Assembly: GCA_038227875.1 (NCBI GenBank)
Contig: JBBRPR010000012.1
Coordinates: forward strand, 96,001-160,000
Direction: 5' to 3'
DNA: 64,000 nt
Source: Planctomycetota bacterium
GTDB lineage: Bacteria > Planctomycetota > SZUA-567 > H5-PLA8
The notes beneath the pieces were generated by a model. The model saw only the letters and a list, made by a program, of their open reading frames with translations, was not told the origin of the DNA and did no database searches. Each line of letters begins with the position of its first letter. Position 1 is the stretch's first letter. A program made the translations under genes and the position numbers. Positions 1 through 54,248 of the stretch are shown here, in pieces.

Positions 1-228
1 TTGCATCAGCCCTCGACGCAGGCGTTCGGACAGGCCTCGGACATGGAAATCACCGCCCAGGAAATCCTGCGCACCCGCAAGAAGTACGCGGAAATCGTCG
101 CACAGGAAATCGGCTCAAACTCCGACAAGATCCAGCAGGATTCCAACCGCGATTTCTGGCTCTCGGCCGAGGAATGCAAGAAGTACGGTCTTGTGGATAA
201 GGTGATTGTGAAGCGATCGGACATGTAA
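1..228 (+). CDS. clpP: ATP-dependent Clp protease proteolytic subunit, C-terminal part (5' truncated by window)
   Basis: HQP (catalytic His), GQASDMEITAQEIL, and DSNRDFWLSAEECKKYGLVDKV match the ClpP C-terminus. Confidence 0.92.
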   Translation: MHQPSTQAFGQASDMEITAQEILRTRKKYAEIVAQEIGSNSDKIQQDSNRDFWLSAEECKKYGLVDKVIVKRSDM

Positions 229-497
229 TGCCGCAGCAGGATCCCAAGGCTCAGCCCCCCGCAACCACGGCCGTCGATCTGGCGGCCGTACGACGCGTGA
301 TCGATGTTGATATTCGTCCCTATATTCAAGCCGACGGCGGCGACATTGAAATTCTATCGCTCGAAGGCAACACGGTCCGCGTCCGCCTTTCCGGCGCCTG
401 CGTATCCTGCCCCAGTTCGCTGCAAACGCTCCGCATGGGAGTCCAGTCCCGCCTGCGCGAAAAATTCTCGCCGGACTTGGTTGTCGAAGGCGTCTGA
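228..497 (+). CDS. NifU/NfuA C-terminal domain Fe-S carrier protein
   Basis: IRPYIQADGGDIE...VRVRLSGACVSCPSS with CxxC; start overlaps the clpP stop (TAATG). Confidence 0.9.
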   Translation: MPQQDPKAQPPATTAVDLAAVRRVIDVDIRPYIQADGGDIEILSLEGNTVRVRLSGACVSCPSSLQTLRMGVQSRLREKFSPDLVVEGV

Positions 498-507
498 ACG
501 GCAATTC

Positions 508-805
508 GAAATTCAAAATTAAAAATTCAAAAACGCACGCGAAAGTACATGTCTTTTCGCCGACCCTCCGGCAAATTTGCCTGAGGGTCAAAATGACCTT
601 AGGGACAATCGTCCCCAAGGTGTTCTACAGGTACAACACTACCATTAGTTGTAGATCTGGCCAATTGGCCAGAAGTTAGTTGGACCCTGTTGCAAATTTG
701 CAACAGGGTCTCTTTGAAATCAGAGCTCGCGAACAAACACACGTCAATCCTAGACGGCTGTCTCCCGCGTGCGTTTTTGAATCTTTAATTTTTAATTTTG
801 AATTC
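508..805. repeat. Inverted-repeat-bounded intergenic element carrying a tandem series of distinct palindromes (MITE-like, copy 1)
   Basis: Ends: heptamer-like AATT(C/A)AA runs plus ATTCAAAAACGCACGCG (525-541) and its exact reverse complement (766-782). Inner palindromes at 539-560, 562-589, 596-621, 620-639, 639-654, 656-673, 683-710. Confidence 0.85.
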
Positions 806-2309
806 ATTCCGCGTTGTCGATCTGTGCCCGCTGCAGCTTCCCCGAATAGTCGACGTACACGCTCTTCCACTCGCTGAAAATGTCGAGCACGGCCTCGCCG
901 GCTTCACGGTGGCCGTTTCCGGTGTTCTTCACGCCGCCGAAGGGCAGATGAACTTCCGCGCCGATCGTCGGGCCGTTGATGTACGTGATCCCCGCGTCGA
1001 AATCGCGGATTGCACGGAAGGCTTTGTCGATGTCTCGCGTGTAGATGCTGCTCGACAGGCCATAGTTGGTATTGTTGAGAATGCCGACGGCCTCTTCAAA
1101 CGTGTCGAACTTCATCACGGCTACGACCGGCCCGAAGATTTCTTCCAGCGCGATACGCATCGTCGGCTTCACGCCCGCAAAAACCGTCGGCTGAAAAAAG
1201 TAGCCGTGATCGAGCCCCTTGCCGGTCGCAGGCTTGCCGCCGACGAGCAATTCGGCGCCGTCATCGAGTCCGATCTGAATGTAACGCTTGACGCGTTCGC
1301 GCTGAGCGTCGTTGACCATGGGGCCGATGTGGCTCTTCGGGTCGAGCGCATCGCCGAGGCGCAGCTTCTTCGCCATCTCGACCAGGCGCTGCAGAAACGG
1401 TTTGTAAATCTTGCGGTGGAGCAACAGGCGGCTGGTGGCCGTGCAGCGCTGGCCCGCCGTCGCGAATGAACCCCAGACGGCGCCTTCCAGTGCGAGGTCG
1501 AGATTGGCGTCGTCCATCACGATCTGCGCGTTCTTGCCGCCCATTTCGAGCGCGCAGCGCTTCAAGTTCTTGCCGCACGCGCCGGCGATGTGGCTGCCGG
1601 TTTCGCTCGAGCCGGTGAAGCTGATCAGGCTGACGTCCTTGTGTGCGACGAGCGCCACGCCGGCTTCTTCACCGATCCCCTGCACCAGATTCACGACGCC
1701 CGGCGGAACGCCCGCATCTTCGATCGCCTTCACGAACGCCGCGGCGCAAGCCGGCGTGTCTTCTGCGGGCTTGAGCACCATCGTGTTGCCACAGACCAGC
1801 GCGGGGAACATTTTCCAGCTTGGAATTGCGATCGGAAAATTCCACGGCGTGATCATGCCGCAGACGCCGACGGGCCGGCGCACGGACATCGCAAATTTGT
1901 TCGGCAGTTCGCTCGGCACCGTCTGGCCGCTCAGCCGCCGGCCCTCGCCCGAATACAAGTGGGCGCAATCGATGGCTTCCTGGACGTCGCCCCGGGCTTC
2001 GGTCAGTAGCTTGCCCATTTCGCGGGCCATCAGATGGGAGAGTTCTTCCTTGCGCTGCGTCAGCACGTCGGCGCAGCGGCGCAGCAGGTTGCCACGGTCG
2101 GGCGCGGGAACGAGCCGCCAGGATTCGAATGCCTTCTTCGCGGCAGCGACGGCTGCGTCCACATCCGCCGCACCCGAGCGCGGAAAGCGTCCGATCATTT
2201 TGCGCGTGTCCGACGGACTGCGGTCCTCAAATGTCTCGTTGCTCTTTGCCGGCTGCCACTTGCCGCCGATGAAATTCAATTCAGGCGCCAAACCCGCGGA
2301 TCGAGCCAT
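804..2309 (-). CDS. NAD(P)-dependent aldehyde dehydrogenase
   Basis: ITPWNFP, LKPAE, FTGS, LEMGGKN, GQRCTA (catalytic Cys), EEIFGP, PFGGVK motifs. Confidence 0.95.
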   Translation of the reverse strand: MARSAGLAPELNFIGGKWQPAKSNETFEDRSPSDTRKMIGRFPRSGAADVDAAVAAAKKAFESWRLVPAPDRGNLLRRCADVLTQRKEELSHLMAREMGKLLTEARGDVQEAIDCAHLYSGEGRRLSGQTVPSELPNKFAMSVRRPVGVCGMITPWNFPIAIPSWKMFPALVCGNTMVLKPAEDTPACAAAFVKAIEDAGVPPGVVNLVQGIGEEAGVALVAHKDVSLISFTGSSETGSHIAGACGKNLKRCALEMGGKNAQIVMDDANLDLALEGAVWGSFATAGQRCTATSRLLLHRKIYKPFLQRLVEMAKKLRLGDALDPKSHIGPMVNDAQRERVKRYIQIGLDDGAELLVGGKPATGKGLDHGYFFQPTVFAGVKPTMRIALEEIFGPVVAVMKFDTFEEAVGILNNTNYGLSSSIYTRDIDKAFRAIRDFDAGITYINGPTIGAEVHLPFGGVKNTGNGHREAGEAVLDIFSEWKSVYVDYSGKLQRAQIDNAE

Positions 2310-2372
2310 GTATGATTTTCTCCAAGAATGGCGAAGCCGGTCTCAATTGTTCACCCAGCGTTCACCGCATCT

Positions 2373-3380
2373 TTACCACACCTGCTCCGGACGCTTAAGC
2401 TTCGACGTCTCGTTCAGAATTTTATTGATCAGCTCCGGAATACCTTCGCCGGTCGCCGCGGAGATTTCTAGGATTTCGACTTTGAGCTTCTTGCGCATCT
2501 TCTTCGCGTTCTCGCGCGCGCCGGTCACGTCCATTTTATTGGCGACAACAATGCGCGGGCGCGAATGCAGCGCTTTGGAATACTGCTCAAGCTCGCGTTC
2601 GATCAGGTGGAAGTTGTCGAGCGGATCGGCGCCGTCCGGCGGCACGGAATCGATGACGTGAACCAATAGGCTGGTCCGTTCGACGTGCCGGAGGAATTCG
2701 TCGCCGAGGCCCGCGCCTTCGTGCGCGCCCTCGATCAGTCCAGGGAGATCGGCCACCACAGCCTGGCGGTAATCGCCGCCGTCGAGAATACCGAGCTGCG
2801 GTTGCTTGGTCGTGAAGGGATACGGCGCGATCTTCGGACGCGCGGAACTCAGGCGGCTGAGCAGCGTGCTCTTGCCCGCGTTGGGAAGTCCGATCAGTCC
2901 GGCGTCGGCGATCAGTTTCAGTTCCAGATGGAGGGTCTGTTCCGTTCCTTTTTCACCGAGCTCCGCGTGGCGCGGTGTCTGGTGTGTTGAGGTCGCGAAG
3001 TGCTGATTACCACGCCCGCCCTTGCCGCCCTTGGCGGCGAGATATTCCTGGCCGGGCTCGACGAGGTCGCAGAGAATTTCGCCGTTGTCGTCTTTCACCA
3101 GCGTGCCGCGCGGCACTTCGATGATGATGTCCTTGCCGGATTTTCCGGAGCAGTTCTTGCTGCCTCCGCCCTGTCCGTTCTGCGCATTGATCTTGCGCTT
3201 GCGGTACAGTGGCAGCAGCGTGTCGACGTTGTTGGTCGCGACGAGCGTGACGTTTCCGCCGCGTCCGCCGTCGCCGCCGGCGGGGCCGCCCCACGGCATG
3301 AACTTGAGGCGCAGAAACGCGACGGCACCGTTGCCGCCGTCGCCGGCCTTCACATGGATCGTTGTTTCGTCGATGAACAT
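2373..3380 (-). CDS. obgE: GTPase ObgE/CgtA
   Basis: Gly-rich Obg domain (AGDGGNG, GGDGGRGG), GLPNAGKST, PYPFTT, ADLPGLIEGA, NKMD. Confidence 0.96.
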   Translation of the reverse strand: MFIDETTIHVKAGDGGNGAVAFLRLKFMPWGGPAGGDGGRGGNVTLVATNNVDTLLPLYRKRKINAQNGQGGGSKNCSGKSGKDIIIEVPRGTLVKDDNGEILCDLVEPGQEYLAAKGGKGGRGNQHFATSTHQTPRHAELGEKGTEQTLHLELKLIADAGLIGLPNAGKSTLLSRLSSARPKIAPYPFTTKQPQLGILDGGDYRQAVVADLPGLIEGAHEGAGLGDEFLRHVERTSLLVHVIDSVPPDGADPLDNFHLIERELEQYSKALHSRPRIVVANKMDVTGARENAKKMRKKLKVEILEISAATGEGIPELINKILNETSKLKRPEQVW

Positions 3381-36891: not shown

Positions 36892-38409
36892 ATGAAAGAC
36901 TTTTACTTCAGCTCTGCCGTCAATCCGCTGGCCGCGCGCCGGTCGCTCATTTCGCTCCAGGGGCATCGCGTGCCGCTGCCGGGCGCGTCGTCGTACGAGC
37001 CGATGCTGCGCGGCTGCAATCAGGTCGAGTGGCTCGAGCAACTCGTCCGTATGGGACTGCGCCACCTGATCGTGCCGCTCAACGGACCAGAAGAGGACAC
37101 CTGCCTCTTCGCGCGCCGGCATCCCGGCTGGGCCATTCGGTCCGGCGAGAGCACGATCATGCCGAAGATCGAAATTCCCGATGCGACTGGGCCGACTGCC
37201 GCGCCCGCCGCAACAGTCGATCCGGCAGCGCCAAAACCTGTCGCTCGTCCGGCGAAGAAAAAGGCCACGACGGAAGTGCTCTACGATCTGCAGCACCGCG
37301 ACGAGGGCGCGTTCACGCGCATCCAGTTCCTGCTCAGCGCGGCGCAGAGCGCCGGGGTGATGGTCGGCTTTACCCTCTTCAACGTCTGGCCGGCGAACAA
37401 TCCAGGTCCGCTCCACCGCGGCGCAAATGTGCAGGGCATCGCGCTCGAGGATCTGCTCCGCCCGCAGAAAAAGCAACAGGCGGCCGATCAGCTCGCGGCG
37501 CTGGAAGCGGCGATGGCGCCGTGCATCGACTGGATCGCGGCGGAGATCCGCGGCCGCGCGGCGGTCTGGGTGCAAGCCTTCCGCGGACTGCCCGATATCG
37601 ATCCGACGCCCGAGGAAAGTTTCGAGCCCCTGCGGCAGATCGAATTCAATCTCACGAAGAAACTGGCGACCGGATTGACGCGTCCTGCCGAAGACGCCGC
37701 GAAAGCGCGCTCCGGGCCGTGGGTAGTCACCCGCGCGGATTTCAACTGGAGCGGCATGGACACCGCGCACCGCGCGCCGTTCGATATGTGTCGCGAATTG
37801 CTCGTCGACAATCAGAACGTGGGGCGCGTCTGCAGCGCCGACGACTTTTTACTTCCTGAATCGCCGCTGATTGAACTACCAGCAATTGAGCAGCGGCGGC
37901 CGGCGTTGTGCAGTTACGTCATGTCGGATCGCGACGAGTACAAATCGATGCGCCGGTTTGCGCAGTCGCGGTTGTGGCGTTCGGCAGTGAGCGGGAAGTG
38001 GCCGATCGTGCCCGGCGGATTTGAGAAGGGGAACAAGCGCCATTGGTTTTTCAGCGCGAAGATGGCGGAATTTTTCAAGCAGTGGGCAGGGAAGGGGTAC
38101 TTCCGCCCCGCGCCGGAAATTCTTGAAGCGGCGACGACGCGCAACCGTATGACGCCGGCGGCGGGTACCGACGGCTGCGGACGCTACTTCGTGTTTTTCG
38201 AAGAGACTCCGAAGCGCGGCGTCGAAGTTTCAATTCCGCCCGGCTGCTACCGCTTTTACTGGCTCGACCCCACCAACGGCCGCGCGATGGATATCGGCGA
38301 AGGGCTTCCCGGCGGCCCGCACTGCCGCGTGCCGGAAGTCGCGACGGAAATGCCGGCACTGCTGGTCGTCGAGCAGGAAGAACTGCCGGACCCCTTGTCC
38401 GTCTGGTAA
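36892..38409 (+). CDS. Hypothetical protein, possible degenerate glycoside-hydrolase-like barrel with C-terminal beta-sandwich
   Basis: Long ORF with host-like codon use; C-terminal YRFYWLDPTNG resembles collagen-binding-like domains appended to GH-type proteins. Confidence 0.6.
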   Translation: MKDFYFSSAVNPLAARRSLISLQGHRVPLPGASSYEPMLRGCNQVEWLEQLVRMGLRHLIVPLNGPEEDTCLFARRHPGWAIRSGESTIMPKIEIPDATGPTAAPAATVDPAAPKPVARPAKKKATTEVLYDLQHRDEGAFTRIQFLLSAAQSAGVMVGFTLFNVWPANNPGPLHRGANVQGIALEDLLRPQKKQQAADQLAALEAAMAPCIDWIAAEIRGRAAVWVQAFRGLPDIDPTPEESFEPLRQIEFNLTKKLATGLTRPAEDAAKARSGPWVVTRADFNWSGMDTAHRAPFDMCRELLVDNQNVGRVCSADDFLLPESPLIELPAIEQRRPALCSYVMSDRDEYKSMRRFAQSRLWRSAVSGKWPIVPGGFEKGNKRHWFFSAKMAEFFKQWAGKGYFRPAPEILEAATTRNRMTPAAGTDGCGRYFVFFEETPKRGVEVSIPPGCYRFYWLDPTNGRAMDIGEGLPGGPHCRVPEVATEMPALLVVEQEELPDPLSVW

Positions 38410-38469
38410 CCCTGTAACGAATTCGTGACAGGGTGACTACTTTTAACCAGGTATTAATTTAATACCGGT
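38406..38469. repeat. Two-palindrome mini-array between convergent genes, related to the 508-805 element
   Basis: ACCCTGTAACGAATTCGTGACAGGGT (38409-38434) shares ACCCTGT/ACAGGGT arms with 684-709; second palindrome GGTATTAATTTAATACC (38450-38466). Confidence 0.75.
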
Positions 38470-54026: not shown

Positions 54027-54248
54027 GAAATTAAAAATTCAAAATTAAAAATTCAAAAACGCACGCGGGAGAATGTTGTTTTGGTTTAAAGTCGACTGTC
54101 GCGATTTCGGATTCCGCAGTCACCCTGTTGCAAATTTGCAACAGGGTTCCAGTAAATACCTTCTGGCCAATTGGCCAGAAGCACAACTAATGGTGGTGTT
54201 GTACCTGTAGAACACCTTGGGGACTGTAGTCCCTAAGGTCAGTTTGAC
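54027..54248. repeat. Second, inverted and one-ended copy of the palindrome-array element
   Basis: Reverse complement of ~587-805: heptamer runs + ATTCAAAAACGCACGCGGGAGA, then palindromes at 54122-54147, 54160-54181, 54195-54216, 54214-54239. Confidence 0.88.

Follow-up and report, generated by a model that had tools for sequence, protein, structure and literature searches.

A probable REP/BIME-like mosaic nested inside a heptamer-armed inverted repeat between two converging genes of a planctomycete

The window analysed here is a stretch of 64,000 nucleotides (positions 96001-160000 of contig C12) from the genome of an uncultured sediment bacterium of the Planctomycetota, represented by a 9.34-Mb assembly of 176 contigs (G000) that is 88% complete and has a GC content of 59.6%. 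Near its start an open reading frame (ORF) for a nifU-like protein converges with one for an aldehyde dehydrogenase (ALDH), and the 306-nt spacer between them is filled by an element that we term E1 (503-804). An initial annotation of this DNA had described the converging genes, a spacer of about 300 bp richer in AT, inverted heptamer ends and a 17-bp inverted repeat, all of which lie where it placed them. It had also taken the region for a non-coding array built of repeats, which it is. Small ORFs within E1 (47-65 aa) overlap the palindromes and were rejected as genes. The features of the locus, and of a second copy of the element elsewhere in the window, are as follows.

228-497, plus strand: nifU-like ORF (89 aa), which ends with its stop codon 5 nt short of the left T arm
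503-541: left T arm, in which the inner box AAACGCACGCG comes after the heptamer run AATTCGA AATTCAA AATTAAA AATTCAA
539-560: P1, an imperfect 22-bp palindrome, 82% complementary, whose sole copy in the genome is itself
562-589: P2, a palindrome of the ACC-N8-AATT-N8-GGT family, 93% complementary, with an AAATTT centre and 1 mismatch
590-595: spacer AAAATG; the inter-palindrome junction GGTCAAAATGACC is found again at loci C56, C2 and C1
596-673, plus strand: M module, composed of H1, a conserved core and H2, with 14 full copies aligned
596-621: H1, a palindromic hairpin of the M module (P3 of the initial annotation)
620-656: conserved core of the M module, GTGTTCTACAGGTACAACACTACCATTAGTTGTAGAT (P4 and P5 of the initial annotation)
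656-673: H2, the other hairpin of the M module (P6 of the initial annotation), a 100% palindrome with a CAATTG centre
683-710: P7, a perfect 28-bp palindrome of the ACC..AATT..GGT family, 100% complementary
710-727: P8, a small hairpin CTCTTTGAAATCAGAG, unique in its exact form and loosely similar to the REP beside one RAYT-like gene
728-765: X, a non-palindromic stretch with a diverged version only in the second copy, E2
766-804: right T arm, which repeats the left arm in inverted form
804-2309, minus strand: ALDH ORF (501 aa), convergent with the nifU-like ORF; its stop codon (804-806) forms the outermost three bases of the right T arm, an overlap of gene and element
54029-54248, plus strand: E2, a second, truncated copy of E1, with a T arm, an X-like stretch, P7 and then the M module in inverted order

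A repeat search recovered the two arms of E1 as an inverted repeat of 39 nt, 92% complementary and 224 nt apart, within which lies a perfect inner part of 17 bp. E1 has a GC content of 42% (26-28% in its arms and 48% in its interior), against 59% and 63% in the flanking genes. As RNA, its plus strand folds at -137.2 kcal/mol (z = -15.2) and its minus strand at -149.3 kcal/mol (z = -13.6), with 0 of 100 shuffles as stable in either case. In both folds the arms close a multi-branch loop of hairpins, and the structure is far beyond chance. A consensus terminator scan of positions 300-1000 called 0 terminators; a GC stem and a U-tract are present, but the stem halves stand 224 nt apart. A consensus promoter scan returned no sigma-70-like promoter. 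A search of Rfam at E <= 10 over positions 300-1000 gave only chance matches to hairpin models, the best of them scoring 21.8 bits, where the threshold is 80, with a model of a microRNA hairpin, so nothing described there matches the region. The earlier exclusion of a CRISPR array is likewise borne out, as there is no constant direct repeat alternating with spacers. A retron and an integron attC array were also rejected, there being no reverse transcriptase or integrase in the neighbourhood.

Used as a query against its own genome, the 313-nt E1 sequence gave 87 BLAST matches. At 80% or more of length and identity, and with palindromes counted on both strands, the arms have 33 matches each, P7 has 32, P2 15, P6 12, P4 11, P5 5, P3 4, P8 2, and P1 and X 1 each. 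Mapped across the genome, the E1 units form 113 clusters with many unit combinations. All the major units of E1 come from families that are spread across the 9.3-Mb genome, and the notion of a unique cassette, as the initial annotation had it, must be given up. Its count of about seven distinct palindromes needs a smaller correction: abutting palindromes do exist, but P4 and P5 (620-655) are one recurring conserved 37-nt core and not separate units. About 220 nt of E1 reappear collinearly, as the reverse complement, in the second copy, E2, at an unrelated locus; the column identity is about 80%. E2 lacks P2, P1 and the second arm and ends at the stop codon of the neighbouring gene, and its arm is found upstream of a start codon on the minus strand, at a distance of about 11 nt. 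At five further loci (C70, C17, C19, C57 and C85) an arm, a linker and an M module make up composites that are collinear, with 72-87% identity. Gain, loss and change of order of units between copies, which had been anticipated, are evident from the comparison of E1 with E2 and from these five composites. In another spacer of the window, a lone P-type palindrome ACCCTGTAACGAATTCGTGACAGGGT adjoins a smaller AT-centred palindrome (38409-38434 and 38448-38468).

A genome-wide palindrome scan (arms of at least 10, at most 1 mismatch) yielded 2260 merged sites, the commonest centres being AAATTT (135), CAATTG (81) and GAATTC (24). The frame ACC-N8-AATT-N8-GGT, which defines the family of P2 and P7 (hereafter the P family), has 178 matches in the genome, against 5 for a reversed control pattern and 0 for a second control; a looser definition gives 272 copies against 5.9 expected by chance. 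Although the 178 matches were collected without any requirement on the interior, the latter is complementary at 8/8 positions in 60 of them, 7/8 in 52, 6/8 in 34, 5/8 in 20 and 4/8 or fewer in only 12. In the 112 best copies (7-8/8 paired) the arm takes 75 distinct forms, which differ from one another, in the mean, by 4.8 of their 8 positions. What stays constant is the length, the ACC/GGT foot, the G-C pairs beside the centre and the AATT tip, around a stem that is variable yet paired. Variation of this kind, with self-complementarity preserved, indicates that it is the hairpin in its folded state, whether as single-stranded DNA or as RNA, that is constrained. Among 248 AATT-centred palindromes, the units of which are symmetric, the ACC...GGT ends are exact in 106. 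The same 248 are distributed over coding sequence (32), convergent (53), tandem (138) and divergent (24) spacers and one contig edge. P palindromes are 87% intergenic, with densities per kb of spacer of 0.32 between convergent, 0.20 between tandem and 0.07 between divergent genes. Stem mismatches on the sense strand of tandem spacers comprise 49 G:T, 40 A:C and 12-22 of each other type; G:T is not favoured over A:C, and hence there is no sign of strand-specific selection on RNA. P units are preceded by T-rich and followed by A-rich sequence, the opposite of a terminator. The 24-nt core of P7 recurs at 6 loci with unrelated flanks, and therefore the palindrome alone is the dispersed unit. A sub-family GTGGTYGCAAATTTGCRACCAC of about 21 copies in both orientations (e.g. 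C2:109525, C9:111885, C16:73510 and C30:69464 of G000) has conserved, asymmetric flanks, CATTGTGCGCGAAAYC on one side and CAAAAACCAACGA on the other, and is perhaps a distinct motif of about 55 nt with a regulatory or RNA role.

In 40 other genomes the frame has 0-8 matches each, against 0-6 for the control; this count includes one unpublished genome (G017, with 1 match), on which the claim of expansion does not depend. A narrower P pattern gave 40 matches in G000, 2 in G006, 1 in G012 and 0 in the other 58 genomes. Among the genomes compared, the P family is expanded only in G000. Viral-labelled contigs contributed 33 matches to the P pattern, of which 25 are true palindromes (at most 2 mismatches in 11 pairs), some of them adjacent, and the palindrome type therefore exists outside G000. 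Four such contigs of high GC from IMG/VR (L253, L269, L278 and L284) carry 2-3 ACC..AATT..GGT palindromes side by side.

The arms that enclose E1 belong to a different class of repeat. A T arm consists of 3-5 tandem heptamers (AAATTCA or AAATTAA) followed by the GC box AAAAACGCACGCG, and 52 such arms, paired or solo, occur in the genome. A full inverted partner, 52-240 nt away, is present for 13 arms (7 loci), and a short partner, with the box and a short heptamer run, for 8 of the 52; the other 31 have no detectable partner. The content between paired arms, 72-240 nt long, differs at every one of the 6 strict pairs compared, while 5 composites are collinear. Gene-relative positions were taken from a simple gene caller made for this analysis (6765 genes, 85.8% coding). 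By this measure 30 of the 52 arms have a stop codon ahead of their outer end, at -14 to +20 nt in 28 cases, and in 7 of these 30 the distance to the called gene end is zero or negative, so that arm and gene abut or overlap. In the other 22 the outer end precedes a start codon at scattered distances. Of the 7 full pairs 2 lie between convergent genes, which is no enrichment. Direct repeats indicative of a target-site duplication flank none of the 11 arm pairs inspected, and the arm list, checked by eye, holds no pair in opposite orientation 0.5-5 kb apart that could bound a gene. The initial annotation had spoken of terminal inverted repeats; with no target duplication, and with partnerless arms so frequent, these are not transposon-like ends.

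In 40 related genomes only the heptamer part of the arms finds matches, in 5 of them, and each of the 9 loci inspected there is a simple hairpin whose arms are separated by about 10-55 nt and which often lies between a stop codon and the next ribosome-binding site. The bare heptamer run has more than 126 exact matches in a species-level genome collection, spread over Nostocales, Bacteroidota, Verrucomicrobiota, Acidobacteriota and candidate phyla. It is mostly an unpaired tandem repeat, with an inverted arm word within 200 nt downstream in 9 of 80 loci inspected. Against viral contigs the arm box has a single match, without heptamers. A second family of heptamer hairpins in G000 has the opposite polarity, opening with the T-rich arm (TTGAATT)n and closing with the A-rich one; it has a conserved loop similar to GCTGCCGCAGCGAAGT and likewise sits at gene ends. 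Its members are as follows.

C2:62879-62950: opposite-polarity heptamer hairpin
C15:147353-147416: opposite-polarity heptamer hairpin
C19:95728-95794: opposite-polarity heptamer hairpin
C24:95653-95726: opposite-polarity heptamer hairpin
C31:36115-36177: opposite-polarity heptamer hairpin
C38:52847-52909: opposite-polarity heptamer hairpin
C40:78159-78228: opposite-polarity heptamer hairpin
C94:2899-2962: opposite-polarity heptamer hairpin

Downstream of the stop codon of the closest ALDH, which shares 75% identity and lies on a metagenome contig, there is a heptamer run (GAAACCC)n (L029:4085-4135). Heptamer repeats at gene ends seem to be common in the lineage of this genome.

Two further families accompany the P palindromes. 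In the 78-nt M module two P-type hairpins stand on either side of a conserved core (GTTCYACAGGTACAAC.CTACCATTAGT.GTGG). Used as a BLAST query, this 37-nt core found 25 places in the genome, of which the 14 with both core halves were aligned and 11 short or partial ones set aside. In the 14 aligned copies both hairpin stems covary and the core is nearly invariant; the core has 0 matches in the viral contigs. The Q family has about 67 copies, each a hairpin about 52 nt long whose loop of 12 nt is conserved; they are often arranged as inverted doublets about 35-60 nt apart and very often located directly inside a T arm. Whole elements of the form arm-Q-Q'-arm are long palindromes, and E1 itself has no Q unit. 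P units number 18 within 200 non-coding nt on the inner side of T arms, where 1.2 would be expected, and Q units 11, as against 0.33, and 24 of the 52 arms have at least one P or Q unit inside; this enrichment is inflated because some composites are copies of one another.

A gene that might mobilise these repeats was sought in the same assembly. It encodes four intact Y1 transposases (Y1_Tnp, RAYT-like), along with fragments, at the following positions of G000.

C72:36218-36556: intact RAYT-like gene
C9:158303-158644: intact RAYT-like gene
C79:279-614: intact RAYT-like gene
C3:47816-48160: intact RAYT-like gene

Each is bracketed by its own small hairpins (e.g. TTGTCCTGAAAGGACAA, GCGCCCTGAAGGGGCGC and GCTCTTTCAGAGC) of low copy number (6-36), and these four loci are classical REP-RAYT arrangements whose REPs are other than the P family. 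Among the four intact Y1_Tnp genes of this 88% complete genome none is flanked by P palindromes, and of the 3 genes in the genome that do have P palindromes on both sides, 0 are transposase-like. For the ALDH there are 595 metagenome relatives (best 75% identity) with different neighbours; nifU homologues are present in 13 of 16 family genomes, and in three family genomes the orthologues are followed by other genes and the element is missing. Neither these three genomes nor the ALDH metagenome contigs revealed an empty site or an insertion polymorphism; the neighbourhood is not conserved in the nearest genomes examined, which belong to other genera. Contigs from four other metagenome DNA runs cover positions 1-3000 in part (e.g. 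667-846 with 0 differences), and none of them bridges an empty site. One contains a joint from 532 to 775 with 36 foreign letters, the shorter side of which is 24 letters only, and is best read as another arm pair from elsewhere.

Taken together, these findings lead us to favour the view that E1 is a REP/BIME-like mosaic nested inside a heptamer-armed inverted repeat, assembled from at least three independent dispersed families of hairpin repeats. The outer layer would be the heptamer-armed inverted repeat formed by the T arms, a class with tandem 7-nt arms directly after stop codons. The inner layer would comprise two 26-bp ACC-N8-AATT-N8-GGT palindromes, one 78-nt M module and three minor pieces. 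We infer that the repeats spread as DNA, by a mechanism that recognises or depends on the folded hairpin and not by a transposon-style cut at terminal repeats. They would accumulate where insertion is tolerated, here a few bases after two converging stop codons, with a result resembling the BIMEs of E. coli. Transcripts from either gene would acquire a very stable multi-branch fold closed by A5-CGCACGCG and CGCGUGCG-U5, with a U-rich 3' arm, and an end so folded could terminate or protect both mRNAs; a role as a substrate of RNase III or as a transcript-end structure is plausible. Three observations speak against termination: the consensus scan calls no terminator, the flanks of the P units run the opposite way to those of one, and full arm pairs are not concentrated between convergent genes. 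E1 is probably selfish DNA that may also give both transcripts a structured end, and selfish accumulation at a tolerated site is in itself an explanation for every observation reported above. A more far-reaching scenario, which we consider possible but unlikely, would make the P family a new REP-like superfamily, with no RAYT gene found beside it, whose stems diversify freely as pairing is kept by correction within the folded hairpin. P members and Q hairpins would then insert preferentially into or beside the loops of heptamer arms, and gene-end hairpins would be landing pads that grow stepwise into cassettes. The passage from E2 to E1, by addition of P2, P1 and the second arm, would represent one such step.

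One alternative is that E1 is a MITE, that is, a non-autonomous transposon with the palindromes as cargo, for which a transposase acting in trans would cut at the 39-nt terminal inverted repeats. The length and 92% complementarity of the repeat, the 7 full arm pairs, the five collinear composites at 72-87% identity and the about 220 nt shared by E1 and E2 at unrelated loci are what such a transposon might leave behind. Nevertheless, none of the 11 arm pairs inspected has a flanking direct repeat, 31 of the 52 arms are partnerless, there is no common internal sequence, with contents varying from pair to pair, and the survey by eye revealed no oppositely oriented pair 0.5-5 kb apart to bound a gene. 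Moreover, the arms are tandem heptamers of 3-5 units, and the heptamer run is a plain tandem repeat in many phyla; we regard a MITE as unlikely. The extreme stability of the fold, the covariation of the stems across the copies in the genome and the conserved 37-nt core between two variable hairpins would also be accounted for if E1 were a gene, about 300 nt long, for a structured non-coding RNA made up of five or six hairpins and the stem that closes them. This proposal sits poorly with the overlap between arm and ALDH stop codon, the similar folding of both strands, the unrelated contents of other arm-bounded loci and the failure of G:T (49) to exceed A:C (40) on the sense strand, as well as with the lack of any sigma-70-like promoter and of any Rfam match at E <= 10 other than the hairpin-only chance ones. 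A single structured RNA, one of the options offered in the initial annotation, is accordingly very improbable.

The remaining alternatives invoke proteins that bind the palindromes. E1 could be a hub of sites for a protein that reads hairpins or cruciforms through the AATT tip and ACC/GGT foot, for instance a nucleoid-organising, gyrase-like or RNA-binding protein; this transfers the proposal of the initial annotation from duplex DNA to hairpins. A constant frame round a variable stem of fixed length is indeed what a reader of structure would select, and binding of gyrase, IHF and Pol I to BIMEs has been reported in E. coli; but no candidate protein was found, and an enzyme that mobilises hairpins specifically would keep the same frame equally well, making the hub a rather unlikely choice. 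The initial annotation had preferred sites on double-stranded DNA for dimeric proteins, in the form of captured operators or decoys for sequence-specific regulators. Perfect, loop-free dyad symmetry about an AATT centre agrees with that idea. However, a dimer that reads sequence would conserve the half-site and not the pairing, whereas 75 distinct half-sites are seen among the 112 best-paired copies, which make up 112 of the 178 frame matches; the sites are also depleted in the divergent, promoter-bearing spacers (0.07 per kb against 0.32 in convergent ones). Operators or decoys of this kind are highly improbable. Our preference accordingly stays with the nested mosaic of hairpin repeats.

How REP-like repeats spread, and why they are retained, are unsettled questions that have been pursued almost entirely in Proteobacteria. 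The uncultured sediment bacterium studied here offers a compact natural experiment, with at least 4 hairpin families in one genome. One of these, the P family, has about 180-270 copies in which the stem varies at nearly every position and the length, foot and tip are fixed, and its units are strongly associated with a very different class of repeat, the heptamer-armed hairpins. Stepwise accretion, if true, would supply a concrete model for the building of BIME-like mosaics and would point to a hairpin-specific enzyme. There is also a lesson for annotation, in that such "cassettes" are mosaics of repeats, and neither genes nor operators.

A literature search for such repeats in Planctomycetota found no papers, and comparison was made with systems described elsewhere. 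REPs and BIMEs, in the account of Di Nocera et al. (2013, PMC3733652), are extragenic palindromes of 20-40 bp in high copy, occurring singly or in mosaics with recurrent linker motifs; the same source places REPs at gene ends and mentions hypothesised roles in supercoiling, termination and mRNA stability. The P family resembles the REPs of Enterobacteria and Pseudomonas in being short, extragenic (87% intergenic) and present in 178-272 copies. E1 resembles a BIME in that it combines 3-4 family units and in that both its junction GGTCAAAATGACC and the 37-nt core recur elsewhere. The initial annotation had set REP/BIME aside on the ground that the units differ; that ground gives way, as the main units are genome-wide families and BIMEs are by definition mosaics of different palindromes. 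The units of a BIME alternate in orientation; P units are near-perfect palindromes and therefore have no orientation. There are nonetheless clear differences: 1) the E1 units lack the GTAG or CGTC tag of tagged REPs, and have ACC/GGT ends and an AATT centre instead. 2) The stems of P units are far more variable, and no RAYT gene is flanked by them. 3) The E1 cluster is nested inside the inverted arms of another repeat. REPINs, reportedly introduced by Bertels and Rainey in 2011, are said to be REP doublets that form hairpins; the Q hairpins beside many T arms are likewise inverted doublets, although E1 has no Q unit and no cognate RAYT was identified for Q.

The closest parallel for the outer layer is the inverted heptamer repeats of Xanthomonas. 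According to Rehm et al. (2015, PMC4692102), GGGAATC heptamer repeats form 70-75 inverted pairs in each genome, preferentially of four units, which lie within 50 bp of stop codons and are scarce between divergent genes; heptamer repeats in Nostoc are mentioned there as well. T arms share with these the 3-5 tandem 7-nt units, the inverted arrangement and the intergenic location, and the 28 of 52 arms found at -14 to +20 nt from a stop codon fall within the same distance of about 50 bp. T arms differ in their AT-rich unit (AAATTCA or AAATTAA), as opposed to the G-rich, quadruplex-forming GGGNATC repeats of Xanthomonas and Nostoc, in their fixed GC box and in having loops filled with other repeats. 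The STRR heptamers of cyanobacteria are comparable heptamer repeats. In Neisseria the Correia or NEMIS elements, which are MITEs, have terminal inverted repeats of 26 bp round a homogeneous interior and duplicate a TA target. The T-arm elements agree with them in their size of about 100-300 bp, intergenic location, terminal inverted repeats and ability to form a long hairpin when transcribed, and depart from them in having neither TA target duplications nor a homogeneous interior. Finally, E1 has the order of parts of a bidirectional intrinsic terminator (A-tract, GC stem, complementary GC stem and T-tract), symmetric and placed between convergent genes, but its "loop" is 224 nt of hairpins and the consensus scan calls none. 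E1 is thus of the REP/BIME-like and heptamer-hairpin kinds already known, and not a new kind of system; what is new here is the filling of one repeat's arms by others, together with a hypervariable but strictly paired 26-bp family without a transposase found beside it.
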